A stretch of 64,000 nucleotides of DNA from assembly GCA_016188775.1 (NCBI GenBank), contig JACPHC010000010.1, positions 31,333 to 95,332 of the forward strand, written 5' to 3'. The stretch's first letter is position 1; each line of letters opens with the position of its first letter. The DNA is from Parcubacteria group bacterium. Its GTDB lineage: Bacteria > Patescibacteriota > Minisyncoccia > JACPHC01. The notes under the pieces are model-generated. The model worked only from the letters and a program-made list of their open reading frames with translations, ran no database searches and was not told where the DNA came from. Position numbers and translations under genes: made by a program. This document shows, piece by piece, positions 6,821-61,350 of the stretch.

Positions 6821-6866
6821 ATTTCACTACAATGACCTCACGATCGTGAGGTCATTGTAGTGAATA
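6821..6866. repeat. perfect 42-46 bp palindrome (family C copy 1), TTCACTACAAT-GAC-CTCACGATCGTGAG-GTC-ATTGTAGTGAA
   Basis: Perfect palindrome centred on CGATCG between the mfd stop and the dprA start; second copy at 61307-61350 has a compensated 3-nt change. Confidence 0.8.
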
Positions 6867-6887
6867 ATTTACACTACTGGACGCCAG

Positions 6888-8840
6888 TTATTTTTTTAGT
6901 TTTTCAATCGCTTCATTGAGCAGTTGATAATAAAGATTCAATCCAACGGCATTAACGCAGCCGGATTGTTTGGCGCCAAGGATATTCCCGGCGCCGCGAA
7001 TTTTCAGGTCGGCCGTCGCGATTTCATAGCCGGCTCCCAAATGAGACATCTGACGCAAAGTCTCCAGCCGCTTTTTGGCTTTTTCCGGAATGCTTAAAGA
7101 GCGGTAAAGAAAATAAGCAAAAGCTTGCCGGTTGCCCCGGCCTACCCGGCCTCTTAATTGGTGCGCTTCGGCCAGACCCAAAAGCGATCCTTCTTCAACG
7201 ATCAGGGTGTTGACATTGGCTAAATCCAGGCCGTTTTCAATGATGGTCGTGGCCATTAAAACTTGAATTTTTTTCTCTCGAAAGTCTTGAATGATTTTAA
7301 GCAGAGATTTCTCGTTCATTCGGCCGTGAGCCGTTTCTATTTTCGGCCAATTTCCATGGCGGTTTTTCTTTAAAATCTTGATCAGATTTTTCTTGGCCGC
7401 TTCAATGGTTTCAATTCGGTTATGCAAAAAGAAAACTTGGCCGCCTCTCTGAAGTTCGTAATTAATCGCCTCTTGAATTATTTTTTTTGAGAACGGCAGG
7501 ACAAAAGTTTTAATCGGAGTTCTGCCCAGGGGCGCCTCGTCAATTCGCGAAAGCGACCTTAACGAAGAAAGAGCCAAAGAAAGAGTGCGGGGGATAGGGG
7601 TGGCCGATAAGCTTAAAATATCCAAAACAGCGCGCATCTTTTTCATTTTTTCTTTTTGGCGCACGCCGAATTTTTGCTCCTCGTCAATTATCAAAAGTCC
7701 GAGATTTTTAAATTCGATGTCCGGAGAAAGCAGGCGGTGGGTGCCGATAATAATGTCAATTTTGCCGTTTTTTAAATCAGCCAGAGTCTGTTTTGTTTCT
7801 TTTTTGGAAAAAAGACGGGAAACGCGCTCGATATTCAAAGGGAATTTTTTAAGCCGATTTTTAAAAGTTTCAAAATGCTGTTGGGCCAGTATTGTCGTTG
7901 GCGAAATCAAGGCGACCTGCGATCCGTTTAGAGCTACTCGAAAGGCCGCGCGCAGCGCGACTTCGGTTTTTCCAAAGCCGACATCGCCGACGACAATTCT
8001 ATCCATTGGGCGTTGACTTTCCAAATCCTTAAAAATTTCACTAATCGTTTTCTTTTGGCTTTCGGTTTCTTGATATTCAAAAGAATCCGTTAGCATTATT
8101 TCTAGGTGTCGGTCCGGAACATAAGGTTTTCGGCCGACCATTTCTCTTTTGGCGTAAATAGCGATTAATTCTTTGGCAAATTCAATTATATTTTCTTTGA
8201 TTTTTTTTCTGGTATTTCCCCAGAGAGGGCTGCCCAAGCGGTGAATTTTGGGAGTTTCAAATCCAAGATACGGGCTGATTTTTTCTTTGAGTCCAAAAGG
8301 AACAAAAAGCAAATCCGGACGACCGCCGATTTTAGGCGGAGCGTATTCTATGATGAAATATTTATTTTGTTTTTTTTCTTGAACGCCCCGAAAGATTCCA
8401 ATGCCGTGATCCAAGTGGACGACATAATCGCCGAGATTAAAGACATCCTCTTTTGATTTTTTGGGCTTTTGCCCGGACAACGTTGTCGGCTCTATTTCAA
8501 TAATTTCTTCAAGCCGGTTGTTTTCAAAATCAAGCCTGATAATTTTTTCAGAGTTTATCGGAAAGATGTCAATAATGCCGCCTTGTTTGGAAAATTCGCC
8601 GGCGGAAAAAACTTTGGAAACTTTTTTGTAGCCCAAATCGTCAAATTGTTTTAAAAGCCGGCTGATGGCAATGTTGTCGTCTTTTCGCAAAAAAAGAGTG
8701 TTTTTTTGGAAAAAAATCTGGGTTTTGGCCGAATTTTTTATTTGATGAAAATTTTCCGAAAACCACAAAACGGGCTTTTCCAAAAAAGAGGGGGTAAGCC
8801 CGGCGATTAAAATTTCTTTTTGTCTGATTAAATTATTCAT
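6888..8840 (-). CDS. mfd: transcription-repair coupling factor Mfd-like helicase, short form lacking the UvrB-homology N-terminal module
   Basis: RNAP-interaction motif GDYVVHLDHGIGIF; Mfd-type Walker A GDVGFGKTEVALRAAF; DEEQKFGV; helicase C motifs (QLRGRVGRG); 650 aa versus ~1150 for canonical Mfd. Confidence 0.7.
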   Translation of the reverse strand: MNNLIRQKEILIAGLTPSFLEKPVLWFSENFHQIKNSAKTQIFFQKNTLFLRKDDNIAISRLLKQFDDLGYKKVSKVFSAGEFSKQGGIIDIFPINSEKIIRLDFENNRLEEIIEIEPTTLSGQKPKKSKEDVFNLGDYVVHLDHGIGIFRGVQEKKQNKYFIIEYAPPKIGGRPDLLFVPFGLKEKISPYLGFETPKIHRLGSPLWGNTRKKIKENIIEFAKELIAIYAKREMVGRKPYVPDRHLEIMLTDSFEYQETESQKKTISEIFKDLESQRPMDRIVVGDVGFGKTEVALRAAFRVALNGSQVALISPTTILAQQHFETFKNRLKKFPLNIERVSRLFSKKETKQTLADLKNGKIDIIIGTHRLLSPDIEFKNLGLLIIDEEQKFGVRQKEKMKKMRAVLDILSLSATPIPRTLSLALSSLRSLSRIDEAPLGRTPIKTFVLPFSKKIIQEAINYELQRGGQVFFLHNRIETIEAAKKNLIKILKKNRHGNWPKIETAHGRMNEKSLLKIIQDFREKKIQVLMATTIIENGLDLANVNTLIVEEGSLLGLAEAHQLRGRVGRGNRQAFAYFLYRSLSIPEKAKKRLETLRQMSHLGAGYEIATADLKIRGAGNILGAKQSGCVNAVGLNLYYQLLNEAIEKLKK

Positions 8841-9016
8841 TTTTAGATGGAGCGTAGGCTTGACTCGCGGAACCGTTGTCGGCTCGCCCCAGCGGCTCGC
8901 CGCAACTTAATTCTCGGCGCCAAAACTTTTGCTTCGCAAAAGACCAATCTTTTGGCGCCTCCGAGATATTCCGCTAAGCAAGTTTACGCTCCGTCTATTT
9001 TAAAATAATCATCCGT

Positions 9017-9553
9017 CTATTTAATTTTAATCTCAATATCTTCAATTGTTTCTTTAATGATCTTTTTTAAAGTTTTTTCTTCGTTGGGGGCGAATTTTTG
9101 CAAAACCAGTTTTTCCGCTTTCATTCTTCTTTTTTCTTTTGGCGGTCGAATGCCGACGCGAAAACGCCATAATTCATTGGTTTTTAAATTTTTAATAACT
9201 GACTCCACTCCTTTGTGGCCGGCCGAATGTTTGCCAAAAGAAATTTTGATTTTGCCGAATTCAATGTCTGAATCGTCGTGGACGACAAATATGTTCGCCG
9301 GTTTGATTTTGTAATATTTAGCCGCCAAGCCGGCCGATTTTCCGGAATTGTTCATAAAAGTTTCCGGCAGAAGAAGGATAATCCCGCTTTTTTTAATTTT
9401 TGTTTGAGCTATTTTTCCGAACGCTTTTTTGTCTTCACGAAATTCAATTCCCAGTTTTTTAGCCAGTGCTTCAACAACCCGTCTTCCTATGTTATGGCGG
9501 GTATTTTCATATTTTTTGCCCGGATTGCCTAAGCCGATGATGAGATATGACAT
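9017..9553 (-). CDS. pth: peptidyl-tRNA hydrolase
   Basis: MSYLIIGLGNPGKKYENTRHNIGRRVVEALA: canonical Pth N-terminus. Confidence 0.9.
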   Translation of the reverse strand: MSYLIIGLGNPGKKYENTRHNIGRRVVEALAKKLGIEFREDKKAFGKIAQTKIKKSGIILLLPETFMNNSGKSAGLAAKYYKIKPANIFVVHDDSDIEFGKIKISFGKHSAGHKGVESVIKNLKTNELWRFRVGIRPPKEKRRMKAEKLVLQKFAPNEEKTLKKIIKETIEDIEIKIK

Positions 9554-9601
9554 TGCAATTTTAGATAGATTATTATATAATTAAAAAATTAAAAAAGCAA
9601 A

Positions 9602-10177
9602 ATGGAAAAATTAAGAATAATGTTTAAAAATTTTTTCAGGCAGGCTTGGGAGATCGCGAAAATCATCGTTGTTTCTTTGGCCATTATCATTCCCGTCCGT
9701 TATTTTCTTGTCCAGCCGTTTCTTGTCAAAGGTTCTTCAATGGAGCCGAATTTTCAAGACGGCAATTATCTTTTAATTGACGAAATATCGCCGCGGCTGC
9801 GCGATTACGGGAGAGGGGATATTATTGTTTTTCGCTTTCCGCAAAATCATGGCATTTATTTGATTAAAAGAATCATCGGACTGCCTGGCGAGGAAGTGGA
9901 AATAGACAATGGCCGGATTTATGTTTGGGACGCCGTTGGCCTTAAAAAAATCGCTTTAATCGAGCCGTATTTGGCCAATGGCGTTTTAACTCTTGGCAGT
10001 TCCCGGATTACTTTGGGCCAAAACGAATATTTTGTTTTGGGAGACAATCGCGCCGCCAGTTCCGATTCGCGGAGTTGGGGTTCGGTTAAAAAAGATAATA
10101 TTGTCGGTAAGGTTTGGCTGCGCGCTTGGCCCATAGCCGAGGCCGGTTTTTTTGAAACCCCGAACTACAGACCATAG
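9602..10177 (+). CDS. lepB: signal peptidase I
   Basis: TM anchor, catalytic Ser box (GSSMEP), Lys box (YLIKRIIGLPGE), GDNRAASSDSRSWG. Confidence 0.85.
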   Translation: MEKLRIMFKNFFRQAWEIAKIIVVSLAIIIPVRYFLVQPFLVKGSSMEPNFQDGNYLLIDEISPRLRDYGRGDIIVFRFPQNHGIYLIKRIIGLPGEEVEIDNGRIYVWDAVGLKKIALIEPYLANGVLTLGSSRITLGQNEYFVLGDNRAASSDSRSWGSVKKDNIVGKVWLRAWPIAEAGFFETPNYRP

Positions 10178-10180
10178 GTC

Positions 10181-10333
10181 TTTCGCTTATAATGATTAAA
10201 GAAGTTATTCTAAAAATTTTTAAGGTCGAGGCGCTTTAATTAAATTATATAATCCGCCGAGGGTGCCTAAAAAATTTTAGAATAACTTCTTGCCATTATT
10301 CCGAAAAATTATTTCGCAAAAAGTTTTATTAAA
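10181..10333. repeat. family A hairpin element copy 1 (A1 subtype) forming the hisS 5' region
   Basis: cgcTTATAATgattaaa + 22-bp arm (gaagttattctaaaaattttta) + conserved core GGTCGAGGCGCTTTAATTAAATTATATAATCCGCCGAGGGTGCC + complementary arm + conserved tail running to the hisS ATG; near-identical copies at 50363-50512 and 52665-52815. Confidence 0.8.
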
Positions 10334-11617
10334 ATGCCTAAAAAAAGACAAAAAGAATTATTTCAGCCGGCCAAAGGAACTTTTGATATTTTGCCGGAAG
10401 ACGAGTGGTATTGGGACAAGATTTATAAAGCCGCGAGCAAAGCGGCCGATGTTTACGGGTTTGGCAAGATAGAGACGCCGATTTTTGAAAATACCAATCT
10501 GTTTTTAAGAAGCGTGGGCGAGACTACCGATATAGCGGAGAAACAAATGTATAGCTTTAAGACCAGAGGCGGGGATGCGCTCACTTTGAGACCGGAAGGA
10601 ACGGCGCCGATTAGCCGGGCTTTTATTTCCAACGGACTTTTTGAATTGCCTCAACCGCTGAAGCTTTGGTATTGGGGTCCCTTTTTTAGGCACGAAAGTC
10701 CGCAGCATTTAAGATACCGGGAGTTTCATCAGTTCGGTTTTGAAATTTTTGGCGACCGGGATTCGGTTTATGACGCTTTAATTATTCAGATTTTTGCCAA
10801 TATTTTAAAGGAACTCGGATGGGCTGATTTTGTCGTGGAGATCAATAGCGTGGGCTGTCAGACTTGCCGGCCGGATTTTCGGCGCCTTCTTTTAAATTAT
10901 TATCGTTCTCGCCAGCGGCTTTTGTGCAAGGACTGCAAAAGGCGGTTTGTTTCCAATCCTTTGCGGCTTTTAGATTGCAAAGAAGAAAAATGCGCCGAGT
11001 TGAAATCGCGCGCGCCGCAAATTATCGATCATCTTTGTTCCGCTTGTCGTCCGCATTTTAAATCCACGCTTGAATTTTTGGATGATCTGGAAATTCCTTA
11101 TATGCTGAATCCGCATCTGGTGCGCGGTTTGGATTATTATTCCAAAACCGTGTTTGAATTTGTTTCAACTTCAAAAGAAGATAAGATGGCTATCGCTTCC
11201 GGCGGGCGTTATGACAATTTGGTGGAATTATTGGGAGGAAAAAGCGCGCCGGCCGTCGGCGGAGCCGCGGGCATTGAACGGCTCATCGCCAGTTTAAAAG
11301 AAATCGGCGTTCAGCCGGAGCCGAAAGAAAATCCGAAAGTTTTTGTGGTTCAGCTCGGTTCTTTAGCCAAAAGAAAATCTCTTTCTTTGATTGAAGATTT
11401 AAGAAAAGCGGAAATCACTTTTGCCGAATCCCTGGGTCGGGATTCCATTAAAGCTCAACTCAAGATTGCTGATCGCCTCAAGGCGCAATTAGCGCTAATT
11501 ATCGGCCAAAAAGAATCTTTGGATAATACGATTATTATTCGAGAGATGGATTCCGGCAATCAGGAAACCGTGACACGAGCGAAAATTATTGATAGATTAA
11601 AAAAGAGATTAAGTTAA
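10334..11617 (+). CDS. hisS: histidyl-tRNA synthetase
   Basis: Class II aaRS motifs (YSFKTRGGDALTLRPEGTAPISRAF; GGRYDNL); anticodon-binding C-terminus; Cys-rich insertion (CQTCRPDF…CKDCKRR…CSACRPHF). Confidence 0.85.
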   Translation: MPKKRQKELFQPAKGTFDILPEDEWYWDKIYKAASKAADVYGFGKIETPIFENTNLFLRSVGETTDIAEKQMYSFKTRGGDALTLRPEGTAPISRAFISNGLFELPQPLKLWYWGPFFRHESPQHLRYREFHQFGFEIFGDRDSVYDALIIQIFANILKELGWADFVVEINSVGCQTCRPDFRRLLLNYYRSRQRLLCKDCKRRFVSNPLRLLDCKEEKCAELKSRAPQIIDHLCSACRPHFKSTLEFLDDLEIPYMLNPHLVRGLDYYSKTVFEFVSTSKEDKMAIASGGRYDNLVELLGGKSAPAVGGAAGIERLIASLKEIGVQPEPKENPKVFVVQLGSLAKRKSLSLIEDLRKAEITFAESLGRDSIKAQLKIADRLKAQLALIIGQKESLDNTIIIREMDSGNQETVTRAKIIDRLKKRLS

Positions 11618-11623
11618 AATTTT

Positions 11624-11992
11624 ATGGCTGTTATTTTCGATCCCAATTGTATTTTTTGTAAAATCGGCAGAAAAGAATTGTCGGCGGATATTTTGTTTGA
11701 AAATGACGCTTATGTCGTTTTTAAAGATATTCAGCCCAAAGCGCCGGTTCATCTTTTAGTGGCGACTAAAAATCATATCAGCTCGATAATGGAAATTCAG
11801 GAAAAGGACAAGGAATTGATCGGCGGTTTGATTTTGCTGGCGAAAAAAATCGCCCAAGATCAGGGAATCGCCGCCAGCGGTTTTAAATTGGTTTTTAATG
11901 TCGGTCGAGGAGGCGGGCAGGTAATCGATCACCTTCACCTTCATCTTTTGGGGGGCTGGGCGGTTCCGGCTCAAAAAAAAGTGGAAGTGTAG
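11624..11992 (+). CDS. HIT-family (histidine triad) hydrolase
   Basis: HLHLHLLGG histidine-triad motif near the C-terminus. Confidence 0.8.
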   Translation: MAVIFDPNCIFCKIGRKELSADILFENDAYVVFKDIQPKAPVHLLVATKNHISSIMEIQEKDKELIGGLILLAKKIAQDQGIAASGFKLVFNVGRGGGQVIDHLHLHLLGGWAVPAQKKVEV

Positions 11993-12022
11993 AAAATTTG
12001 AAAAGAGATAATTTTAAGCATT

Positions 12023-16445: not shown

Positions 16446-18752
16446 ATGTTAAAAAATCCCATCAAACAAGTTGAAAAACGCGACGGCCGGATTGTTGATT
16501 TTGATCAGGCGAGAATCACCAGCGCTATTTACCGGGCCATGGAAGCGGCGAACGAAGGCGATTTGGGTCGGGACCCTCAAAAAGTTTCCGATCGCGTGGT
16601 CAAAGAGTTGATAAAAAAATATTCCAAAGGAGGGATTCCAAAAATAGAAGAAATTCAGGACGTCGCGGAAGAGTCTTTAATTTTATTGGATTTCCCCAAA
16701 GTCGCCAAGGCTTACATTCTTTACCGGCATGAGCGTTCGCTGGTTCGGGAGAAACAAAAATTTATTCCGGAGCGCGTTAAAAAATTAGCCAGCGAGTCTA
16801 AAAAATATTTCCGCAATCCTTTGGGCGAATTTATTTTTTACCGGACTTATTCGCGCTGGATCGAAGAAGAAAATCGAAGGGAAACTTGGATTGAAACGGT
16901 TGATCGCTATGTTAATTTTATGAAAGAAAATTTGGGCCAGCGGCTGAAAGAAGATGAATACGCGACGATTCGCGAGGCGATTTTAAATCAGGAAGTAATG
17001 CCTTCAATGCGGCTTTTATGGAGCGCGGGCAAAAGCGCTAAAGCCACTAATGTTTCGGCCTATAATTGTTCTTATTTAGCACCCTCAAAAATAGAGGATT
17101 TTGCCGAGATTATGTATCTACTGATGTGCGGCGCCGGAGTCGGGTTTTCCGTGGAATCGCAGACAGTTCAAGAATTGCCGATCGTCAAGCGTCAGAATGG
17201 AAAAATAAGAGAGGCTTACGCGATAGCCGACAGCAAAGAAGGCTGGGCCGACGCTTTGACTCTTGGTTTAAAAACTTGGTACGAAGGAGAGGATATTGAA
17301 TTTGATTTTTCCCAGCTTCGGCCGGCTGGAGCCCGTCTTAAAACCATGGGCGGCCGAAGTTCCGGCCCGGCTCCTTTGGTCGCTCTTTTGGATTTTACTC
17401 GGAATAAAATTTTGTCCAGACAGGGAAAGAGATTGAGCAATTTAGATGTTCACGATATTATCTGCAAAATCGCGGATTTGGTGGTGATGGGCGGCGTTCG
17501 GCGATCGGCCCTGATTTCTTTATCGGACCTTGACGATGAAGAGATGCGATTTGCCAAAACCGGACAATTTTACTTGACTGACCCGCAGAGAATGCTGGCT
17601 AATAATTCGGCTGTTTATAATTATCGGCCGACTTCAACCCAATTTTTGGACGAGTGGCTGGCTTTGGCCAAAAGCGGCACGGGCGAGCGGGGAATTTTTA
17701 ACCGCGGCAGTCTAAAAAATCAATTGCCGGAGAGGCGTTGGAAGGTTTTTGAGAAATATTGGCAGACGTCCGGCACTAATCCCTGCGGCGAAATTATTCT
17801 AAGATCGAAGCAATTTTGCAATCTTTCGGAAGTGGTGGCGCGAGCCCAAGATACCGAAGAAACTTTGCTTAGAAAAGTTGAAATAGCGGCGATTTTGGGA
17901 ACTTATCAATCAACTTTCATTAATTTTCCATATATTTCCAAAGATTGGAGGAAAAATTGCGAAGAAGAAAGGTTGCTGGGAGTTTCCATAACCGGCCAGT
18001 GGGATAGTTCGGCCGCCCGATCTCCGGAAATTTTACGAAAATTAAAAGTTCAAGCCGTTAAAACAAATCGTCAATACGCCAAGAAATTCGGCGTTAACGA
18101 ATCAACGTGCGTGACGTGCGTTAAGCCGTCCGGCACGGTTTCGCAATTGGTGGATGCCGCTTCGGGCATGCATCCGCGCCACGCCAAATATTATATTCGC
18201 CGGATCCGTATTTCCGCCACTGATCCGCTTTTCCAAATGTTAAAGGAACAAAAATTTCCCTATCAGCCGGAAGTGGGGCAATTGGAAAATTCCGCCACTA
18301 CTTACGTGTTGGATTTTCCGGTTAAAGCCCCCAAAAGCGCGGCTTTAAGAAACGATTTGACGGCTATGAGTCAGTTGGAGTATTGGAAAATTGTTAAAAT
18401 GAATTACACCGAGCATAATCCTTCCGTGACCATTACCGTTGACGACGGCGAATGGATTGAGGTGGCCAATTGGCTTTATCAAAACTGGGACATGCTGGGC
18501 GGTCTTTCTTTTTTGCCTAAAGAAAAACACGTTTATCAATTGGCTCCTTATGAAGAAATTACCGAAGAGAAATATGTTGAGTTAATGTCTAGAATGCCCG
18601 ATATTGATTTTTCCCAAATTATCGCTTACGAAAAAGAAGATCAGACAACCGGCGCCAAAGAATTGGCCTGCGTGGGCGGAGTTTGCGAAATTGATCCGGA
18701 AGAAGGCAGCGTGCCAACAGCAGAGACAAAAATTATCGCGGCCAGTTATTAA
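16446..18752 (+). CDS. nrdJ: ribonucleotide reductase with N-terminal ATP-cone, probably class II (B12-dependent)
   Basis: ATP-cone (VEKRDGRIVDFDQARITSAI); NPCGEI active-site motif; C-terminal Cys pair; no adjacent NrdB-like gene; class assignment is inference. Confidence 0.65.
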   Translation: MLKNPIKQVEKRDGRIVDFDQARITSAIYRAMEAANEGDLGRDPQKVSDRVVKELIKKYSKGGIPKIEEIQDVAEESLILLDFPKVAKAYILYRHERSLVREKQKFIPERVKKLASESKKYFRNPLGEFIFYRTYSRWIEEENRRETWIETVDRYVNFMKENLGQRLKEDEYATIREAILNQEVMPSMRLLWSAGKSAKATNVSAYNCSYLAPSKIEDFAEIMYLLMCGAGVGFSVESQTVQELPIVKRQNGKIREAYAIADSKEGWADALTLGLKTWYEGEDIEFDFSQLRPAGARLKTMGGRSSGPAPLVALLDFTRNKILSRQGKRLSNLDVHDIICKIADLVVMGGVRRSALISLSDLDDEEMRFAKTGQFYLTDPQRMLANNSAVYNYRPTSTQFLDEWLALAKSGTGERGIFNRGSLKNQLPERRWKVFEKYWQTSGTNPCGEIILRSKQFCNLSEVVARAQDTEETLLRKVEIAAILGTYQSTFINFPYISKDWRKNCEEERLLGVSITGQWDSSAARSPEILRKLKVQAVKTNRQYAKKFGVNESTCVTCVKPSGTVSQLVDAASGMHPRHAKYYIRRIRISATDPLFQMLKEQKFPYQPEVGQLENSATTYVLDFPVKAPKSAALRNDLTAMSQLEYWKIVKMNYTEHNPSVTITVDDGEWIEVANWLYQNWDMLGGLSFLPKEKHVYQLAPYEEITEEKYVELMSRMPDIDFSQIIAYEKEDQTTGAKELACVGGVCEIDPEEGSVPTAETKIIAASY

Positions 18753-18916: not shown

Positions 18917-19062
18917 GTCTACTTCATGCTCTAATAATAATTTTTAATTATTTTTTTTATTTTGTTATAATATTTCAAGCATTTACTTGCTATCGCTTAT
19001 AAATGCTAAAATGGATAGTTTATAGTTTTAAGTTTAAAAATTATTAATCTATTTTAAAATCT

Positions 19063-19623
19063 ATGTCTTTTGGTCCAGGAGTTGTGCAACGGAAAATTTT
19101 ACTTCTACTTTTAGGCGGGTTATCTCTTAGTTTTTCCAGATCGCCGCGGCAATATTTTAGTATTCTTAAAGAAATAAGAAAAAAGTGGAAAAAAATAAAT
19201 CAGCAATCCTTGCAGCGAGCAATAAGAAGTTTATACAAGAATCGTCTCATCACTGAAAAATATAATCGTGACGGAACAATTACGCTTGCGCTTTCCGATG
19301 CCGGCCGTAAGCGCGCTTTGATTTTTAACCTAAATGAAATGTCAATCAAGAAACCGAAGACGTGGGATAAAAAATGGAGAATTATTTTGTTTGATATCCC
19401 TGAAAATAGAAAAAAAATACGGGAAGCTTTACGTTTTCATCTTCAACGTTTAGGTTTTAGACAATTGCAGAAAAGCGTTTTTGTTTATCCTTATCCTTGC
19501 GATGATGAGGTGGATTTTCTTATTGAATTTTATCAAATTAAATCTTTTGTCAGAAAAATGTTCGCTGTTTCGATTGATAATGAATTGTATTTTAAACAAA
19601 AGTTTTCTCTTTTTAATAGTTAG
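19063..19623 (+). CDS. PaaX-family-like transcriptional regulator, short form (winged HTH plus PaaX middle domain, no C-terminal domain)
   Basis: N-terminal wHTH-like region (…LALSDAGRKRA, compare PaaX YSLSDKG); WDKKWRIILFDIPENRKKIREALRFHLQRLGFRQLQKSVFVY resembles the PaaX WDGKWLLLL…GFG core and is Cas2-fold-like. Confidence 0.5.
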   Translation: MSFGPGVVQRKILLLLLGGLSLSFSRSPRQYFSILKEIRKKWKKINQQSLQRAIRSLYKNRLITEKYNRDGTITLALSDAGRKRALIFNLNEMSIKKPKTWDKKWRIILFDIPENRKKIREALRFHLQRLGFRQLQKSVFVYPYPCDDEVDFLIEFYQIKSFVRKMFAVSIDNELYFKQKFSLFNS

Positions 19624-19781
19624 TTGGCTAATTAGAATAGCAATTTGATTAGTTAATAACTACATTATAGATTTTATTTTTAGCACTTAATCGCGATAGC
19701 AAGTAAGTGCTAAAAATAGTTAATTTAGCTAGTAAAGATAATTAAACTAATACTTGATTTTATTTAATTAAATTTTTAATC

Positions 19782-21206
19782 TTGTCTAATATGTCTAAAT
19801 CTCGGATTTTTTTAATTTGGCTTCTTTGTTTTATTGCCGGAATTTTTTTCGCTTCTTATATCAGTTGGCCGAAATTATTTTTAATATTTTTATCCATTGT
19901 CTCTTCGGCGGTTATTCTGGTTTTTAGAAAAGAAAAAATTATTTTTATTTTTGCGGGCGGAATTTTGATTTTTAGCCTCGGATTTTTAAGAATCGCGGGA
20001 ATCGCGGAGAAAAAATCGACGCTTGATCAATATTTAGATAAAAAAATTATTAGCCGAGGAATAGTAATGGCCGAGCCAAAAACAAAAGGAGAATCAACCA
20101 GTTTTCTTTTGGAAATTAGGGGAGAAAAAATTCAAATCAGAACCCGAAATTATCCGATTATCAATTATGGCGACGAATTAGAAGTTCAGGGCCAGCTTAA
20201 ATCGGTTCAAAATTCCGCTATCCGCTACGCTCTCAATTGGCCCAAAATTGAAATTCAAAAAAAAGATCAAGGGAATTTTTTCAAATCCAGTCTTTTTAAA
20301 TTAAAAGAAAAATTCAGCCAAAATATTTCTCAAAATATGCCCGAACCCGAAGCCTCGCTGCTGGCCGGCTATATTTTCGGCTCCCGAAATCTTCCTTCGG
20401 ATGTCGAGCAAAATTTTAAAACCCTCGGCCTTTCCCATATCGTCGCGGTTTCCGGTTTTAATTTAAGCGTTATCGCGCTTTTTATCAGTCAAATTTTTAC
20501 TTATTTTAATTGGCCTCGTTTTTTGAAATTTTGGAGCGCCGTTTCCATTATTTTTCTTTTTGTTTTAATGATCGGTTTTCCGTCTTCGGCCATGCGGGCC
20601 GCGATTATGGCTATTTTAGTTTTAGTGGCGGAAAAAGAAGGCCGCTTGTACGAATCCGCTCATGCCATAATTTTTGCCGGCGCTCTGATGCTTTTATTGG
20701 ATCCTTTAATTTTGCGTTTTGACCTGGGGTTTTCTTTGTCGTTCTTAGCGACTTTGGGGCTGATTTTTCTCTCGCCGATTTTACCGAAATATCTGCCTCA
20801 ACTCGTTTCCCAGACTTTGGCCGCCCAAATTTTTGTTTTACCGGTTCTGCTTTTAAATTTCGGCGTCGTCTCTCCCTACAGTTTATTGGTTAATTTTTTG
20901 ATTTTGCCCTTGGTGCCTCTGGCCATGCTTTTAGGATTTTTAGCCGGCCTGACTGGTTTTATTTTTCAAATTTTGGCCGAAATTATCAGTTGGCTGGCTT
21001 GGCCGATTTTATTTTATCAAATTAAAATCGCTCAATTTTTTTCTTTTTTCCCTTACGCCAAGATTAATTTCGGAAAAATCAGTTTGATTTTCGCCTTTAT
21101 TTATTACGCGGCGATTGGATTTATTATTTTTAAAAATAGAAATAAAGTACCCACTTCCACTTGCGGCGCTGATGTTTTGTTGGGGCATAATAAGCAGGTA
21201 TCCTAA
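19782..21206 (+). CDS. comEC: ComEC/Rec2 DNA-uptake channel, membrane part (DUF4131 + competence domain)
   Basis: Polytopic membrane protein; competence-domain motif LSHIVAVSGFNLSVIALF; the stop codon lies inside a family A repeat. Confidence 0.75.
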   Translation: MSNMSKSRIFLIWLLCFIAGIFFASYISWPKLFLIFLSIVSSAVILVFRKEKIIFIFAGGILIFSLGFLRIAGIAEKKSTLDQYLDKKIISRGIVMAEPKTKGESTSFLLEIRGEKIQIRTRNYPIINYGDELEVQGQLKSVQNSAIRYALNWPKIEIQKKDQGNFFKSSLFKLKEKFSQNISQNMPEPEASLLAGYIFGSRNLPSDVEQNFKTLGLSHIVAVSGFNLSVIALFISQIFTYFNWPRFLKFWSAVSIIFLFVLMIGFPSSAMRAAIMAILVLVAEKEGRLYESAHAIIFAGALMLLLDPLILRFDLGFSLSFLATLGLIFLSPILPKYLPQLVSQTLAAQIFVLPVLLLNFGVVSPYSLLVNFLILPLVPLAMLLGFLAGLTGFIFQILAEIISWLAWPILFYQIKIAQFFSFFPYAKINFGKISLIFAFIYYAAIGFIIFKNRNKVPTSTCGADVLLGHNKQVS

Positions 21207-21362: not shown

Positions 21363-22259
21363 ATGCTTAAGAAAATTATTAAAAATAAAAAAGGTTTAAT
21401 TTTCGGCTTTTTCGGGTTTTTAATTTTAGCCAATTTTTTAATCTGGACTTCGGTTTTCAGTAAAGCCGAGAGCCGATTTTTGCGCGTTTATTTTTTTGAC
21501 GTCGGCCAGGGAGACGCGATTTTTATTGAAACTCCGGGAAACAATCAAATTCTCATTGATGGCGGGCCGACCGATAGAATTATGGAAAAATTAGGCCGAA
21601 CTATGCCATTTTACGACCATTCAATAGATTTGATTATTTTGACTCATCCGCACGCGGATCACGTCAGCGGCCTGATTAATGTTTTAAAAAATTATGAAGT
21701 CAAAATGATTTTAATGAGCGATGTCAGCTATAACACGGCCGAATATCAGGAATTTTTAAGGCTGGTTAAAGAGAAAAATATTCCGGTTATTTTTGCCGAA
21801 CCGATGCGTTGGCGCTTGTCCAGCGGCGTTATTTTAGATATCTTAAACCCAGCGCAAGATTTGCAAGGAATTAGTTTAAAAAATGTTCATGACGGGGCGG
21901 TGGTCGGTCAATTAAAATACGGCCGAAATATTTTTCTTTTGACTTCGGATATTGAAGAAAATATAGAAAAACAACTTGTTCTGGCTTATGGCGATTCCTT
22001 GAATTCCGATATTTTAAAAGTCGGACATCACGGATCGAAAACTTCATCCTCTCCGGAATTTTTGAAAACAGTTTCTCCAAAAATTTCAGTAATTTCGACT
22101 GGCCGGAAAAACCGTTACGGCCATCCGCATCAAATAACGCTTGATCGTTTGCGAGAAATTGGCAGCCAAATTTTTCGCGCTGATCTGGACGGAGATATTG
22201 AGATTAAAAGCAACGGTGATATAATGGAAATAGATCTGTCGCGTAATAATTTTCGGTAG
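21363..22259 (+). CDS. ComEC-type metallo-beta-lactamase domain protein (separate ORF)
   Basis: N-terminal TM helix; FFDVGQGDAIFIETP…LTHPHADHVSGL…VGHHGSKTSSS: MBL-fold motifs typical of the ComEC C-terminal domain. Confidence 0.75.
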   Translation: MLKKIIKNKKGLIFGFFGFLILANFLIWTSVFSKAESRFLRVYFFDVGQGDAIFIETPGNNQILIDGGPTDRIMEKLGRTMPFYDHSIDLIILTHPHADHVSGLINVLKNYEVKMILMSDVSYNTAEYQEFLRLVKEKNIPVIFAEPMRWRLSSGVILDILNPAQDLQGISLKNVHDGAVVGQLKYGRNIFLLTSDIEENIEKQLVLAYGDSLNSDILKVGHHGSKTSSSPEFLKTVSPKISVISTGRKNRYGHPHQITLDRLREIGSQIFRADLDGDIEIKSNGDIMEIDLSRNNFR

Positions 22260-22307
22260 AAAGGTTATTACGCGACAGATCTAAGAATTAAATGAAATAG
22301 AAATAAA

Positions 22308-56008: not shown

Positions 56009-56015
56009 CATGAAC

Positions 56016-56080: not shown

Positions 56081-57513
56081 TGGAAGCATTTGATTATCAA
56101 TTTATTATAGTCGGGGGCGGAGCCGCGGGTTTCGCGGCCGCCATCAAGGCGGATTCTTTGAAAATTAAAACTTTGATGATTTCGGGCGGAAAAGTGCCTC
56201 TTGGCGGCACATGCATCAATGTCGGCTGCATGCCGTCTAAAAGATTGCTTGCCGTGGCGGAGGCCTACTGGAATGCTAAACACAGCAAATTTGATGGAGT
56301 ACAAAATTCCGCGCCAAAATTAAATTTTGAAGAAGTCGTCAAATCAAAAGACGCTCTTATCGGTAAACTTCAAAGCAAGGCGTACGCCGGCACTCTTAAA
56401 TTTTTGGTTTACGTGACGCTTAAAGAAGGAGACGCGAAATTTATTGATGAGCGCGCGATCGAAGTAAATGGCGAGAAAATCACGGGGGAAAAGTTCCTTA
56501 TTTCAACGGGGTCATCCGCTTTTATTCCGCCGATTTCCGGATTGGATAGCGTGGATTATTTGACCAATATTGAAGCGTTGAGTTTAAAAGAATTGCCGAA
56601 ATCAATGATTATTTTAGGTGGCGGGCCCCTGGGTCTTGAATTTTCCCAAATCTATAGCCGTTTTGGAACAAAGGTTACGGTCTTGCAATCAGCTGAAAGA
56701 ATTGCCGACCGCGAAGAGCCGGAATTATCCAATTTTCTCCGAAAAAAATTAGAAGAGGAAGGAATTACAATCTATACTTCCGCGCGAACTAAAAGTGTTA
56801 GCCGGCGCGATGGCTTTATCGAGGTTCAAACAGATGTGCGCGGTAAAGAAATTATAATCAAGGCGGAAAAAATTTTGGTGGCAACTGGAGTAAGAGCCAA
56901 TACTCAATCTTTGAACCTCGAAAGCATCGGTGTCGGTATCGGCAAAAAAGGAGGAGTAATAACCAACGAATTTTTACAGACAGACCTCCCTCATATATTT
57001 GCGGCTGGCGATGTTGTGGACCAGTATGGCGATGAGGTTAATCCCAAATTAGAGACAACCGCCGGAAGAGAGGGCTTTGTCGCCGCGTCCAATCTTCTCG
57101 AAAATAAGGGCATCAAAATAGATTTTCGCTCTACTCCGCGTGCTATTTTCACCGACCCGTCGCTCGTCAGCGTCGGCCTTACCGATGCCCAAATCGTCAA
57201 GCAAAGCGGGCTTACCTGTGGCTGCCGCGCTCTGAGCTTGGAACTTGTTCCAAAAGCGCATATTTTAGAAGCGGCGGACGGCTTAATTAAAATGGCAATA
57301 GACGCCAAAACAGAAGAAGTTATCGGTATCCACATGGCGGGAGCAAGAGCGGACGAAATTATTTCAATGGCAAGTTTTATTATCAAGAACAGAATGAAGT
57401 TGGACGACATTATTGAAAACACGTTTATCTTTCCGACTATGGCCGAATCAATCAAATGGGTCGCCCAATCCTTCAGGAAAGATGTCAGCAAACTTTCCTG
57501 CTGCACGGAATAG
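56050..57513 (+). CDS. merA: mercuric reductase (core, without NmerA domain)
   Basis: FAD site FIIVGGGAAGFAAA; redox-active GGTCINVGCMPSK; C-terminal vicinal Cys pair (KLSCCTE) characteristic of MerA. Confidence 0.7.
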   Translation: MTKQNKISNGVEAFDYQFIIVGGGAAGFAAAIKADSLKIKTLMISGGKVPLGGTCINVGCMPSKRLLAVAEAYWNAKHSKFDGVQNSAPKLNFEEVVKSKDALIGKLQSKAYAGTLKFLVYVTLKEGDAKFIDERAIEVNGEKITGEKFLISTGSSAFIPPISGLDSVDYLTNIEALSLKELPKSMIILGGGPLGLEFSQIYSRFGTKVTVLQSAERIADREEPELSNFLRKKLEEEGITIYTSARTKSVSRRDGFIEVQTDVRGKEIIIKAEKILVATGVRANTQSLNLESIGVGIGKKGGVITNEFLQTDLPHIFAAGDVVDQYGDEVNPKLETTAGREGFVAASNLLENKGIKIDFRSTPRAIFTDPSLVSVGLTDAQIVKQSGLTCGCRALSLELVPKAHILEAADGLIKMAIDAKTEEVIGIHMAGARADEIISMASFIIKNRMKLDDIIENTFIFPTMAESIKWVAQSFRKDVSKLSCCTE

Positions 57514-57517
57514 AATT

Positions 57518-57961
57518 ATGGAGAATAAAAAAGCGCCGGAATTTATAACCGATGACGAGAAATGGCTGAATTCAAGGCCGTTGAAACTCGCTGATCTAAA
57601 AGGCAAGATAGTATTGATTAAATTCTGGACTTTTATGTGCTCGTGGTGTCAGCAGGATTTGCCGGGCATTATGGAACTTGAAAAGAAATATAAAGACAAG
57701 GGGTTGGCGGTAATTGGTATCCATTCACCAGAGACAACTTTTGAAAGAGACATCGAAGCCCTTAAAAAACAGATGAAAGTTTTAAAAGTGGATTTTCCGG
57801 TGCTTACCGATAATGCCCAACAAAACTGGAAAGCCTATAAAGTTGAGAATTGGCCGGCGTATTATCTGATTGATAAGGAGGGAAACATCGCGTTTCACAT
57901 TCTTGGTCCGGGGATCGAAGGCCGGCTAGAAAATAAGATTAAGGAAATTCTCGGCATATGA
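57518..57961 (+). CDS. thioredoxin-fold thiol:disulfide oxidoreductase (TlpA/redoxin-like)
   Basis: FWTFMCSWCQ CxxC motif; start ATG 57518 chosen just after the merA stop. Confidence 0.7.
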   Translation: MENKKAPEFITDDEKWLNSRPLKLADLKGKIVLIKFWTFMCSWCQQDLPGIMELEKKYKDKGLAVIGIHSPETTFERDIEALKKQMKVLKVDFPVLTDNAQQNWKAYKVENWPAYYLIDKEGNIAFHILGPGIEGRLENKIKEILGI

Positions 57962-58668
57962 ATAAAAAAGAGGCAATTCCCGCCATTACCCGAGGTCAAA
58001 TGCGCGAAATTGACCGATTGATGATGGATGGCCTTGGCATTTCTTTTTTTATGATGGCCGAAAATGCGGCGCGTGAAATCGCGCGCGTGGCGCGCGATCA
58101 GGCGGGAAATGGCCGTCGGGTTCTGGTTCTTGCCGGAACCGGCGGCAATGGCGGAGACGGCTTAATCACGGCAAGAAGATTGTCGGGGTGGGGATACGAA
58201 CCTCGCGTTATTCTTGTCGGCGGCCGCGTTAGAGACGAGATAAATATATTGAGTTCCATATTGGTAAAAATGAAGATTTTTATACAGAGCAATTCTCTAG
58301 GAATAAATGAATTGTTTGCGTGGGCGGATATTATCGTCGATTCCTTGTTGGGCTACGGAGCTTCAGGAAATCCGCGAGGGGAAATGGTTAAATTGATAGA
58401 AATGGCCAATAACTCCGGAAAAACAATTGTCTCCGTTGATATGCCCACGGGGCTTGACGCTGATACGGGAGCGCCCGCTGAATTTACAATTAAGGCGCGT
58501 CATACCGTATCCATTGGACTTCCCAAGGTAGGGCTTTTAAAAGATGCCGCAAGTTTATATGTTGGAAAATTATGGCTATGCGATATTGGCATCCCACCAT
58601 CTCTCTATAAGGAGATTGGCGTCGAGGTGGGGCCTATATTCCGCGATGATACGCTTATTAGTATTTAA
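57958..58668 (+). CDS. YjeF N-terminal domain protein (NAD(P)H-hydrate epimerase)
   Basis: VLVLAGTGGNGGDGLITARRL. Confidence 0.75.
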   Translation: MNKKEAIPAITRGQMREIDRLMMDGLGISFFMMAENAAREIARVARDQAGNGRRVLVLAGTGGNGGDGLITARRLSGWGYEPRVILVGGRVRDEINILSSILVKMKIFIQSNSLGINELFAWADIIVDSLLGYGASGNPRGEMVKLIEMANNSGKTIVSVDMPTGLDADTGAPAEFTIKARHTVSIGLPKVGLLKDAASLYVGKLWLCDIGIPPSLYKEIGVEVGPIFRDDTLISI

Positions 58669-58679
58669 TTATAAATTTT

Positions 58680-58940
58680 ATGGAACAAACAAATCACAAA
58701 ATAACCATTTACTCGACTTCTACCTGTCCTTCCTGCAAAATGCTAAAATCTTATCTTCAGGAAAAAGGATTTGAGTATGAAAATAAAGATGTGGGGGAAG
58801 ACGCGAAAGCCCGCGAAGAGATGATGGAAAAAAGCGGCGGACTTTTGAGTACGCCGACGATGGAAATTGACGGAAAAGTAATTGTTGGTTTTGACAAGGA
58901 AAAAGTTGATGTTTTGCTGGGGATAAACTCCCATGCCTAA
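58680..58940 (+). CDS. glutaredoxin-like protein (NrdH/YruB-like)
   Basis: ITIYSTSTCPSCKMLKSYLQEKGFEYENKDV. Confidence 0.8.
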   Translation: MEQTNHKITIYSTSTCPSCKMLKSYLQEKGFEYENKDVGEDAKAREEMMEKSGGLLSTPTMEIDGKVIVGFDKEKVDVLLGINSHA

Positions 58941-58943
58941 TGT

Positions 58944-59213
58944 TTGAACATTACCACCAGCGGCGCGATTACCGCGGGTGAAAAATCAGAGTTTGGGAAA
59001 CTCACGAATATAATTCTTTTAACTCGCGCTAGGGAAGAAGCTTGTAAAATTTGCGCTACTTTCAATTTGGCTCCTACGATGAGCGCATTAGTTGAGTCGG
59101 CCTTAGGAGACGCGATTTCAAGAGCGCTTCAGGAAATGAAAGGATTTAAACAAGAACATTTTGCTAAATTTCATCTCGGAGGCGCGCTTGGCAAGCTAGA
59201 TAAAACAGCTTGA
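58944..59213 (+). pseudogene. fragment of a SIS-domain (KpsF/GutQ-like sugar-phosphate isomerase) gene
   Basis: …PTMSALVESALGDAISRALQEMKGFKQEHFAKFHLGGALGKL matches the SIS C-terminal half; only 89 aa with a TTG start, so probably a remnant. Confidence 0.45.
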
Positions 59214-59234
59214 TTTTATTTCTAAATTTTATAT

Positions 59235-59256
59235 CATTTGAATAATTATTCAAATG
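59235..59256. promoter_or_regulatory. perfect 22-bp palindrome CATTTGAATAATTATTCAAATG upstream of the aroE-like gene; the half-site is shared with the arsR upstream region (55657-55670)
   Basis: Perfect dyad; tatcatttgaataa recurs ~15 bp upstream of the arsR start. Confidence 0.4.
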
Positions 59257-59271
59257 TTGATACATTAAACA

Positions 59272-60756
59272 ATGACAAGCTGTTGCGAAGAACCACAATT
59301 TAACAAGGAGGGCGGAGAAGTGGAAAAAATGGACGTTGACAAACATGAAAAGCCGGCAATCGCGCAAGAGCTTTGGTTTCAAGAAGACGAAAAAGAGCTT
59401 GTCGCAAAACACAGCATTGGCGCAACCGTAAGAGCCGGTGACAGAACCGCGAAAACCGCCGACCTCAAGGGCGGATATCAGGAAGGCGGATTTGTTAACT
59501 TGAAAATTCAAAAAAATGACGGCAGTTTTGATCCCCTAGAGACAAGAGTGATAGTCTACTCCGTTGTGAAAAAGATGTTGGAAGAAATTGAGCCGGAAGA
59601 TTTAGAAGGTACGCCATTGCTCCAAAAAACCAAAGCAGATCTCATTGAAAAATTAAAACGGCTTTACGGAAGAGATTTTACCGACAACGATGTTGTTACG
59701 ATTGTGCGATTTGAATACGCGGATAACTTAAAAGAGGCCGGTGATTTAATCAGGGTAAAAACCTTGACTTACGCTCATGAGCCGAAAGAAAACCCAAAAA
59801 ACATGGACATCCCTTCGTATACCATTCCGCTCATAGAGCATGACTATCCTGCCAAAACGCCGGTAATGTGGAATGCGGCATACCGAAAATTCGGAATTGA
59901 TGCTGGAAATATTATGCTGGTCGGCGATTCGCAGAGCGCTGGCCACATATTGGATGTGTTCCGCAAAGACGCGAAATACAGAGGCGGCGGGGCTGGCGTT
60001 GGCTTTAAAAATGAAGTTATTACTTACCTTGACGAACTTGAACCGCTAGCAAAAGAGATTGGCGCCGTGAACTTTATCATGAAAACGCCGGAAGGAAAGC
60101 TCAAGGGTTTTAATACTGACGGAATAGGCTATGCGCAGAGTTTGGAAGAAGTATTCAAGCAGAGACAAGAAGAATTGCGGGGCAAAAAAGCAGTTGTTTT
60201 GGGCGCTGGCGGAGCCGGCAACGCGGTCGCCTTCGCTCTTGCAGAAAAAGGCATGAGGGTTGTGATTCTCAATAGAACTGTCGCGAAAGCCCGCGATTTA
60301 GCGGATAAGATAAATAGATACTTCAAGAAAATGAGAATAAATGAGACGTTGAGATTCGGCGGTGAAGAATTGATTGCCGCAGAAATAAGAGATGCCGATG
60401 CAGTAATTAATGTTTCAACAAAAGGCTCGGCCGGAGAACTGGAAAAGTATTCAGCTTTAGCTCCGGCTGTATTGCCGGCAAGCCAAGAAAACATCCAAGA
60501 AAATCTCGATCGGACAAAAGAGCTGTTGCGTGTCATACCCCAAGATGCTATTATCAGTGATATTGTGCTGGGCAAAGAAGCTACTCCATTACTAAAATCC
60601 GCCAAAGCTGCCGGATTTGAAACTCTTGATGGCATTCCAATGGTAATCAATCAAGGAGTGGAAGCGTTTTGGCTGCTCTATGACAAAGAGCTTCAATCAA
60701 AAAACATTACCAAAGAACAAGTTGCCGAAGTTATGAAACGAGCCGCAAGCTCTTAA
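59272..60756 (+). CDS. aroE: shikimate dehydrogenase-family protein with ~180-aa N-terminal extension of unknown function
   Basis: C-terminal ~300 aa: …MWNAAYRKFGIDA…NTDGIGYAQSL…GKKAVVLGAGGAGNAVAFALAEKG…NRTVAKARDLA. Confidence 0.6.
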   Translation: MTSCCEEPQFNKEGGEVEKMDVDKHEKPAIAQELWFQEDEKELVAKHSIGATVRAGDRTAKTADLKGGYQEGGFVNLKIQKNDGSFDPLETRVIVYSVVKKMLEEIEPEDLEGTPLLQKTKADLIEKLKRLYGRDFTDNDVVTIVRFEYADNLKEAGDLIRVKTLTYAHEPKENPKNMDIPSYTIPLIEHDYPAKTPVMWNAAYRKFGIDAGNIMLVGDSQSAGHILDVFRKDAKYRGGGAGVGFKNEVITYLDELEPLAKEIGAVNFIMKTPEGKLKGFNTDGIGYAQSLEEVFKQRQEELRGKKAVVLGAGGAGNAVAFALAEKGMRVVILNRTVAKARDLADKINRYFKKMRINETLRFGGEELIAAEIRDADAVINVSTKGSAGELEKYSALAPAVLPASQENIQENLDRTKELLRVIPQDAIISDIVLGKEATPLLKSAKAAGFETLDGIPMVINQGVEAFWLLYDKELQSKNITKEQVAEVMKRAASS

Positions 60757-60772
60757 ATTTTCAGGCACCTTC

Positions 60773-61210
60773 ATGTTATTGAGGGTGCTTTTTTATATGA
60801 TTATTCATGAAAAATTAATTATCTATACCGACGGCGGAGCCCGGGGCAATCCCGGACCGGCGGCTCTGGGCGCGGTGGTTCAAACCGCTGAAGGGAAATT
60901 GGTAAAAACTTATTCGGAGTATTTGGGAGAAAAAACTAATAATCAGGCCGAATACGAGGCGCTGATTTTCGCTCTGCGGAAAGTCAAGATATACAAGCCC
61001 AAAGAAATTACCTGTTTTTTAGACAGCGAGTTGGTGGTCAAGCAACTAAACGCCGAATATAAAATTAAAGACCCGGATCTTGGGCCGCTTTTTATTAAAG
61101 TTTGGAATTTAAAACTGGATTTTGAAAAAGTGATTTTTAATCATATTTCGCGCGAAAAAAACAAAGAAGCGGATAAATTGGTTAATCAAAAATTAGATCA
61201 GAAAATATAA
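60773..61210 (+). CDS. rnhA: ribonuclease HI
   Basis: IYTDGGARGNPGPAALGAV…NNQAEYEALIFAL. Confidence 0.85.
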   Translation: MLLRVLFYMIIHEKLIIYTDGGARGNPGPAALGAVVQTAEGKLVKTYSEYLGEKTNNQAEYEALIFALRKVKIYKPKEITCFLDSELVVKQLNAEYKIKDPDLGPLFIKVWNLKLDFEKVIFNHISREKNKEADKLVNQKLDQKI

Positions 61211-61306
61211 AATGTCGCCGCATATTATTCTTCAAATTTTTTTACATATTTTTAAACGATCGTTTGAAAAGAAGAAGGGATTTTAAAAAAATAAAGGATT
61301 TAAAAT

Positions 61307-61350
61307 TTTCACTACAATCAACTCACGATCGTGAGTTGATTGTAGTGAAA
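61307..61350. repeat. perfect palindrome, family C copy 2 (TTCACTACAAT-CAA-CTCACGATCGTGAG-TTG-ATTGTAGTGAA)
   Basis: Same outer and core sequence as 6821-6866 with the internal triplet swapped and compensated. Confidence 0.8.

Follow-up and report, generated by a model that had tools for sequence, protein, structure and literature searches.

Long perfect palindromes in a Parcubacteria contig and their association with genes for PaaX-like proteins

Bacteria of the Candidate Phyla Radiation (CPR, Patescibacteria) have tiny genomes with few recognisable regulators, and to our knowledge almost no regulation has been characterised in them. A 64,000-nucleotide stretch of DNA from a Parcubacteria group bacterium (GenBank assembly GCA_016188775.1, contig JACPHC010000010.1, positions 31,333 to 95,332; hereafter the window) carries two long palindromes, referred to here as Family C, which lie in separate intergenic gaps and share their arms and core, and the question they raise is what such dyads are and what recognises them. 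From their relatives in other genomes and metagenomes, we propose with moderate confidence that they belong to a set of dispersed cognate double-stranded DNA sites of PaaX-like proteins, among which the Family C copies are orphans. The two copies are as follows:

6823-6864, Family C copy 1: perfect 42-bp palindrome TTCACTACAATGACCTCACGATCGTGAGGTCATTGTAGTGAA, an orphan in the gap between the Mfd-like gene and dprA
61307-61350, Family C copy 2: palindrome perfect over 44 bp, sharing its arms and core with copy 1 and having the spacer CAA, an orphan in the gap between the RNase H gene and a 104-amino-acid (aa) open reading frame (ORF)

Copy 1 consists of the outer arm TTCACTACAAT, the spacer GAC and the core CTCACGA followed by TCGTGAG, and the inner 42 bp of copy 2 (61308-61349, TTCACTACAATCAACTCACGATCGTGAGTTGATTGTAGTGAA) also form a perfect palindrome. 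Re-reading of the sequence agrees with the original prediction that both 42-bp sites are perfect palindromes centred on CGATCG with common outer arms and core. The ‘triplet swap’ (GAC/CAA) that it described is, more exactly, a change at two of the three positions, the middle A being common to both copies, while both changes are indeed mirrored on the opposite arm. The outer-arm pair reads TTCACTACAAT-N20-ATTGTAGTGAA; allowing up to three mismatches, the Family C pattern matched exactly twice in the window (a density of 2 per 64 kb) and not at all in 100 dinucleotide-preserving shuffles.

The dyad is not confined to this stretch: relatives of it exist, so that the ground on which the original prediction would have fallen does not apply. 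A scan of genome contigs identified one locus (L003, from a metagenome-assembled genome (MAG) of Candidatus Spechtbacterales) with two such palindromes 720 bp apart, and a metagenome scan with AATNNNCTCACGATCGTGAGNNNATT returned 73 stretches. Perfect dyads over arms of 13-26 nt were present in 56 of the 72 non-redundant sites and thus extended well past the 26-bp search pattern; because that pattern prescribed the core as well as AAT at positions 11-13 from the centre, conservation there is in part a product of the retrieval. Outer arms vary by lineage, with both arms of one site agreeing in most cases. The retrieved loci also carry perfect palindromes with the related cores TTCACGATCGTGAA, CCACGATCGTGG, CGCGATCGCG and GACGATCGTC, which points to a wider class centred on CGATCG. 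This class is present in many uncultivated bacteria, the few loci with a named organism being Patescibacteria, and it was found both in CPR bacteria and in some other uncultivated bacteria. The core pattern had no matches in viral contigs; eight viral matches to the outer arms (CACTACAATN{14,26}ATTGTAGTG) were discarded, their interiors being non-palindromic and their number about that expected by chance.

In an alignment of 59 distinct sites, taken as 48-mers placed by their centres, 19 of 20 symmetric position pairs change on both sides, and 89.5% of cells are complementary compared with 58.6% in shuffles and 33–42% with slid partners, in keeping with the earlier claim that it is the symmetry itself which is maintained. 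The six central bases (CGATCG) are invariant and self-complementary across these sites, and such mismatches as occur are concentrated 8, 10, 14 and 15 positions away from the centre; at the first two of these (8 and 10), which belong to the spacer, copy 1 and copy 2 of the window disagree. Pairs of the G·U or U·G type account for 7 of the 39 non-Watson-Crick cells in the inner 14 pairs, close to the chance share of about 2 in 12 and therefore not enriched. This pattern fits dyad symmetry at the DNA level better than an RNA stem-loop.

Clustering of the flanking ORFs revealed one large cluster (17 entries from about seven loci), the members of which are PaaX-like: they match Pfam PaaX_M, the ‘central Cas2-like domain’ (E down to 5e-24), with PaaX_C in members of about 270 aa, and match the PaaX model TIGR02277 at 30–55 bits, far below its 264-bit cut-off. 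Among 102 neighbouring proteins (non-redundant at 90% identity; 112 Pfam families matched, the 25 largest of which were shown), PaaX_M was the top family with six members, followed by the co-occurring PaaX_C with three, and no other family had more than two; at 1–3 such genes per 1,000 in CPR, we estimate a chance expectation of 0.1–0.3 PaaX-like proteins among the 102. No transposase family was among the 25 largest, and the recurrent partner is PaaX-like, so that the link to the TnpA transposase of IS200/IS605 suggested by the original prediction found no backing. Nor were paa gene families present among those 25 or among the window genes checked.

The partner proteins matched PaaX_M with E values of 1e-15 to 1e-25, and a winged helix-turn-helix (wHTH) was indicated by the structural model and by weak matches of the MarR/HxlR type. 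CPR forms are about 184–214 aa; PaaX_C occurs only in the non-CPR proteins of about 270 aa and is absent from the proteins of the window, L003, L045, L096 and L099. The Asp of the FDIPE motif in the Cas2-like domain is invariant. At 50% identity this large family comprises 5,614 clusters with E ≤ 0.001, 3,092 of which reach E ≤ 1e-10, and its members are labelled ‘Cas2’ in some cases at NCBI, ‘PaaX’ in some cases at JGI and ‘hypothetical’ in many. PADLOC gave weak Cas2 N-terminal matches only and no defence-system assignment, while a PDB sequence search with the protein alone returned nothing and a profile gave marginal matches to MarR/HxlR wHTH proteins. Literature searches that covered the motif, PaaX in Patescibacteria and PaaX together with Cas2 turned up no paper that connects such palindromes with PaaX-like proteins of Patescibacteria.

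Two palindromes bracket the PaaX-like gene at loci L003, L012, L045, L060 and L076, with the upstream site 0–50 nt before the start codon and the downstream site 3–60 nt after the stop codon. An upstream dyad lies 0–56 nt before the start in the window gene, L003, L012, L045, L048, L060, L090, L092, L096 and L099; judged by position, these genes thus have an inverted repeat at the regulator's own promoter, as PaaX-like autoregulation calls for. When, as a reverse test, loci were fetched by protein similarity alone, all seven with both flanks visible were bracketed (the window gene, L090/91, L092, L093-95, L096, L097/98 and L099), and an eighth (L100) had the downstream copy only. The palindromes at L093-95 are centred on ACGATCGT, and on both sides of L097 there are quasi-palindromes that share their arms with the L096 sites but have CGCTATAGCG as centre and a spacer that is not mirrored.

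The cores go with the paralogue. L096 (protein P0247) is flanked twice by TATACAAATACTCACGATCGTGAGTATTTGTATA, which contains ACTCACGATCGTGAGT, and L099 (protein P0258) twice by CTTTATACAAATGCAACGCGATCGCGTTGCATTTGTATAAAG, which contains GCAACGCGATCGCGTTGC; these two proteins are paralogues in one genome (GCA_964374025.1), and they have near-identical putative recognition helices and common arms TATACAAAT with different palindrome cores. Other sites with a CTCACGATCG(T/C)GAG core are found at the L099 locus (6467-6514, 16878-16915 and 18485-18524). Five L003-type proteins present the same picture of a near-identical putative recognition helix (DPEQVRxSIYKLKRN), common outer arms and paralogue-specific cores, and in both protein families there are segments that vary in sequence and are nevertheless symmetric. 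Separately, L096 contains two LAGLIDADG homing-endonuclease ORFs in a gene-poor stretch (7342-9228), which may be introns in an rRNA gene.

The window has a PaaX-like gene of its own, with a pair of repeats around it:

18978-19007: upstream inverted repeat AGCATTTA-CTTGCTATCGCTTA-TAAATGCT, ending 56 nt before the PaaX-like ATG
19063-19623, + strand: PaaX-like gene, 186 aa, with an N-terminal winged helix and the Cas2-like PaaX_M, without PaaX_C
19675-19718: downstream quasi-palindrome with 20-nt arms, 90% complementary, and centre GATA, about 65–75 nt before comEC
19782-21206, + strand: comEC (Competence and DUF4131 domains), downstream of the PaaX-like gene and the downstream repeat

The product of this gene was matched by hmmsearch to the palindrome-linked proteins with E 1e-25 and by Pfam PaaX_M with E 3.8e-22, and its AlphaFold2 model (mean predicted local distance difference test score, pLDDT, 77.6) had E. 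coli W PaaX (PDB 8a39) as its best PDB match, followed by Rv0674 and Cas2. There were 1213 homologues at E ≤ 1e-10, and the named ones among the 120 best were Patescibacteria/Parcubacteria MAGs. A perfect extended -10 element, TGTTATAAT (18963-18971), abuts the upstream repeat, an arrangement that fits autorepression, and the downstream quasi-palindrome carries the inner motif of the upstream repeat the other way round; the pattern AGCAYTTA-N14-TAARTGCT occurs in the window only at these two places (18978-19007 and 19682-19711), on either side of the gene. Repeats of the orthologues (L090/91, L092) keep the inner CTTGCTATCGC with outer arms that are different but mirrored, and the 184-aa family retains both repeats in conserved synteny (RmuC...X-rplU). 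This repeat pair differs from Family C, whose two copies are probably bound by a paralogue of the L003 type with its gene outside the window. The comEC gene is split from its metallo-beta-lactamase part (21363-22259). It was noticed post hoc that two of the four palindromic sites of the window precede DNA-uptake genes (comEC and dprA); this link is not seen in the orthologues, where rplU follows the PaaX-like gene.

If the palindromes are cognate sites of PaaX-like proteins, a symmetric dimer, or two dimers on the inner and outer half-sites, would bind the dyad, and the protein would repress its own gene at its own promoter. At the orphan sites (mfd/dprA and rnhA/104-aa ORF), binding might act as an upstream regulator or as a roadblock or insulator between transcription units, and such sites would have arisen by copy-and-paste of a discrete unit rather than by point mutation. 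The mirrored differences (GAC/GTC versus CAA/TTG) would then reflect identical subunits reading both arms, not RNA pairing, and template-switch self-correction of long palindromes possibly adds to them.

The nearest characterised system is PaaX of E. coli, which represses its own promoter and has as its operator a long inverted repeat, TGATTC(N27)GAATCA, with operators at the Pa, Pz and Px promoters; the regulator's own promoter is one of the targets (PMC9493321). The combination of a wHTH with a Cas2-like PaaX_M, the 8a39 structure as best match of the window model and a long inverted repeat (about 39 bp in E. coli) as operator are common ground, as are the outer arms CACGAAT/ATTCGTG of one non-CPR lineage, which resemble the PaaX half-site. 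Unlike E. coli PaaX, the CPR proteins of about 184–214 aa lack PaaX_C and have no paa genes nearby, and the half-site sequence, its orientation and its spacing all differ from TGATTC-N27-GAATCA; furthermore, the dyads here are perfect, the gene has one on each side, and identical copies are scattered, in many cases between convergent genes. Since they lack PaaX_C, are far from paa genes and have different sites, the CPR proteins are not PaaX equivalogues.

Identical 34–42-bp units recur, with unrelated flanks, at 4–9 loci of one metagenome sample or sample series (the 38-bp TTAGTCAATAGTCTCACGATCGTGAGACTATTGACTAA at nine loci of Ga0315288/Ga0315293, a 34-bp unit at six loci of Ga0209417 and a 42-bp unit at four loci), and because independent point mutation could not plausibly have made each of them, we infer that they were copied whole; the means by which such dyads, perfect as they are, arrive at unrelated intergenic places with no transposase recognisable poses a mechanistic puzzle. 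Contigs L012 and L060, which are related, both have the two sites 883 bp apart, while the flanks immediately upstream of the site differ. Sites are confined to intergenic DNA, where, by crude ORF calls (which miscalled window copy 2 itself as convergent), 19 were in convergent, 3 in divergent and 20 in tandem positions. At L058 (73-136), a 10–11-bp direct repeat, TTAAATTATGA, flanks a 44-bp palindrome, the duplicated segment being the stop/start junction between two neighbouring genes; this was the only target-site duplication among 60 sites, which otherwise gave the same result as the controls in strict and relaxed tests.

Several observations weigh against reading these palindromes as binding sites of PaaX-like proteins. 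No cognate protein for the TTCACTACAAT arms was found among the loci retrieved. From the Family C copies it is about 112 nt to the next start codon, and the best promoter-like site, which they do not overlap, is more than 50 nt downstream of them; many sites elsewhere are in places where a promoter is not expected, several of them within 12 nt of two stop codons. Downstream genes vary by lineage, with no conserved regulon, and there is no palindrome (and no mfd) at the dprA locus of the nearest usable relatives (57–59% amino-acid identity; order pth-dprA-topA-relA), which means that the site is not tied to dprA across Parcubacteria. Identity of the 34–42-bp units at 4–9 loci is complete, spacers included, and so exceeds what binding specificity needs, while two sites in one genome can differ by mirrored changes, for which a single homodimer on both arms is not a sufficient explanation. 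Given the convergent positions, the non-conserved downstream genes and the palindrome-free dprA relatives, a classical operator cannot account for every one of the sites; some may instead serve as roadblocks or insulators, or be neutral places where a dispersing element has landed.

A regulator with a dyad operator is itself a familiar arrangement; what is unusual here is perfect symmetry over 34–64 bp, the bracketing of the gene and the dispersal of identical copies, and it is these features that keep alive a comparison with repetitive extragenic palindromic (REP) sequences. REPs number tens to hundreds of extragenic copies per genome, the gene for the REP-associated tyrosine transposase (RAYT) is flanked by REP copies, and its paralogues go with different repeat families. 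In a selfish system of that kind, the palindromes would be non-autonomous hairpin or cruciform elements spreading through intergenic DNA, and the bracketed PaaX/Cas2-like gene would mobilise or maintain them in place of being a conventional regulator, which we regard as rather unlikely. The resemblance lies in dispersed short extragenic palindromes, perhaps with a genome-specific consensus, a flanked partner gene and the lack of target-site duplications. More particularly, identical units recur at unrelated loci within one metagenome sample or series, with sample- or lineage-specific variants; a copy stands on each side of the partner gene, whose paralogues have variants of their own; positions are biased to convergent and 3'-end intergenic DNA; the site is absent at the dprA position of the nearest available relatives; L058 has one insertion-like footprint; segments are variable yet symmetric in both protein families; and the Cas2-like domain has its invariant FDIPE Asp. 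Unlike a RAYT, the partner is not a Y1/HUH transposase, neither a known transposase nor an HUH domain being present and none occurring among the 25 neighbour families shown, and the palindromes differ from REPs in having no GTAG head, in being perfect, in keeping their core across lineages and in their low density (2 per 64 kb in the window). Target-site duplications are not general (1 of 60 sites), sites and spacing are conserved between L012 and L060, the 184-aa family keeps both repeats in its syntenic position, and the one characterised member of the protein family, E. coli PaaX, is a repressor. Hairpins of the IS200/IS605 type or of the palindrome-associated transposable element (PATE) type, which are subterminal, imperfect and associated with TnpA or TnpB, were considered and rejected, as no such family recurs among the 25 neighbour families shown and there is neither sequence between the arms nor an asymmetric left or right end. 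More doubtful still is the idea of a previously unrecognised REP/RAYT-like system in CPR bacteria, in which this non-transposase protein would recognise cruciform or hairpin DNA and copy, symmetrise or disperse perfect palindromes of 34–64 bp through intergenic DNA; a second idea of this rank, compatible with the first, is that PaaX-like proteins are major regulators in CPR genomes poor in transcription factors, with sites in this window fronting comEC and dprA.

That the palindromes act as RNA transcribed along with the flanking genes, whether by stabilising 3' ends, as RNase III sites or as non-canonical terminators working in both directions, with mirrored changes that keep the RNA pairing, is in our judgement improbable. 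The transcripts are predicted to fold very stably (-31 to -32 kcal/mol, z about -10; copy 1 -32.3 kcal/mol, z -9.7), copy 1 is only 23 nt past the mfd stop codon, many sites fall exactly between convergent stop codons and covariation is strong. However, no usefully oriented U-tract is present: a search for intrinsic terminators passed over copy 1 and picked up copy 2 on the - strand alone, a strand on which no gene ends there, and the sites of other lineages have T runs ahead of the stem and A runs after it, the wrong way round for a terminator. Moreover, the bases that would form the ‘loop’ do not vary and are complementary to one another, G·U shows no excess, it is the sequence and not the pairing alone that is conserved across lineages, Rfam 15 gave no matches at gathering score in the whole window, and an RNA role would leave the link to a DNA-binding protein and the paralogue-specific cores unexplained. 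Of the interpretations offered by the original prediction, the protein-binding DNA dyad is the one favoured and the REP-like element survives in the aspect of dispersal, whereas the lack of a G·U excess, of a U-tract and of an Rfam match argues against the RNA hairpin. Templated mutation perfects quasi-palindromes, and the palindromes could accordingly be functionless by-products of template switching, with the window pair a chance duplicate; mismatches do cluster at few positions (8, 10, 14 and 15 from the centre), but conservation of the core across many metagenomes, the non-random association with a protein, bracketing that held in the reverse test and the confinement of sites to intergenic DNA make this very improbable.

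Other inverted-repeat systems were compared with the palindromes attributed here to PaaX-like proteins. The controlling inverted repeat of chaperone expression (CIRCE), bound by HrcA, is TTAGCACTC-N9-GAGTGCTAA, an inverted-repeat operator conserved across phyla, and the downstream repeat of the window (19677-19716) reads TTAGCACTT...AAGTGCTAA; its spacer is 14–16 nt instead of 9, the orthologue arms are CCACTTA and CCATATA, and there is no chaperone operon, so that with other arms in the orthologues the likeness is probably a coincidence. The highly iterated palindrome HIP1 (GCGATCGC) of cyanobacteria is an 8-mer that occurs about once per kb, also inside genes. Like it, the present palindromes are CGATCG-centred, with CGCGATCGCG cores in the relatives L078 and L099, but unlike it the unit is 34–64 bp long and intergenic, and CGATCG is not enriched in the window (13 observed, 21.9 expected), as a HIP1-like word bias would require. 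For parS, no TGTTTCACGTGAAACA-like 16-bp dyad was present in the 64-kb window within three mismatches, and the Family C core differs from it by four extra central bp; a parB gene is present at window positions 324-1232.

For bacteria with so little characterised regulation, the analysis supplies protein–site pairs that are open to testing, each gene being flanked by its own long palindrome, and natural specificity swaps exist within one genome (CTCACGATCGTGAG versus AACGCGATCGCGTT). There is also a practical side, in that palindromes break k-mer assemblies: the Logan unitigs L001 and L002 begin inside copy 2, 8 nt left of its centre, and many L003-type PaaX-like genes are on contigs of about 1 kb, which we take to be explained by systematic fragmentation of short-k assemblies at these palindromes.

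The genes around the two Family C copies agree in their ORF positions with the context given by the original prediction, which placed copy 1 between mfd and dprA and copy 2 upstream of a pair of NPF-repeat and Cys-rich genes:

6888-8840, - strand: Mfd-like helicase, 650 aa, the gene upstream of copy 1
5883-6731, - strand: dprA (DNA_processg_A), the gene downstream of copy 1, with the palindrome centre 112.5 nt before its ATG
61251-61262: 12-bp palindrome AAACGATCGTTT, preceding the centre of copy 2 by about 72 nt
61442-61756, + strand: 104-aa NPF-repeat ORF, downstream of copy 2, with the palindrome centre 113.5 nt before its ATG

Copy 1 lies 23 nt past the stop codon of the Mfd-like gene (6888, - strand) and 91 nt ahead of the dprA start (6731, - strand), and copy 2 lies 97 nt past the RNase H stop codon (61210, + strand) and 92 nt ahead of the start of the 104-aa ORF (61442, + strand), after which comes a 648-aa Cys-rich ORF. 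The centres of the two copies are thus at near-equal distances (112.5 and 113.5 nt) from the next start codon. A strong extended -10 promoter-like site is located at 61406-61433, between copy 2 and the 104-aa ORF. In addition, a -10-like GGTATAA(A/T) ends 8–9 nt before the ATG of both dprA and the 104-aa ORF, a position which suggests leaderless mRNAs for these two genes. A longer repeated module around the copies was looked for and rejected; the flanks align through A/T-rich runs only, and the repeat unit is accordingly the palindrome itself. The 12-bp palindrome AAACGATCGTTT may be a minimal relative of Family C, the sites at L093 having the centre AAACGATCGT.

The dprA gene is split into a DNA_processg_A domain (282 aa, 5883-6731) and a DprA winged helix (72 aa, 5639-5857) on the - strand, in ORFs 25 nt apart, and many relatives have one protein of 362–368 aa with both domains; a frameshift, a pseudogene or an assembly error may lie behind this, or the split may be genuine. 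Between the winged-helix ORF and the topA start, at 5592-5644, there is an inverted repeat with 25-nt arms that are 84% complementary (CACCCGCC...GGCGGGTG core). Another inverted repeat, perfect over 19-nt arms that enclose a 15-nt loop (TAGATCTGTCGCGTAATAA...TTATTACGCGACAGATCTA) and unrelated in sequence to Family C, is found at 22231-22283, where it overlaps the end of the Lactamase_B ORF just ahead of ndk. Elsewhere the window has ordinary-looking G+C-rich stems flanked by A and T runs (I13, I19).

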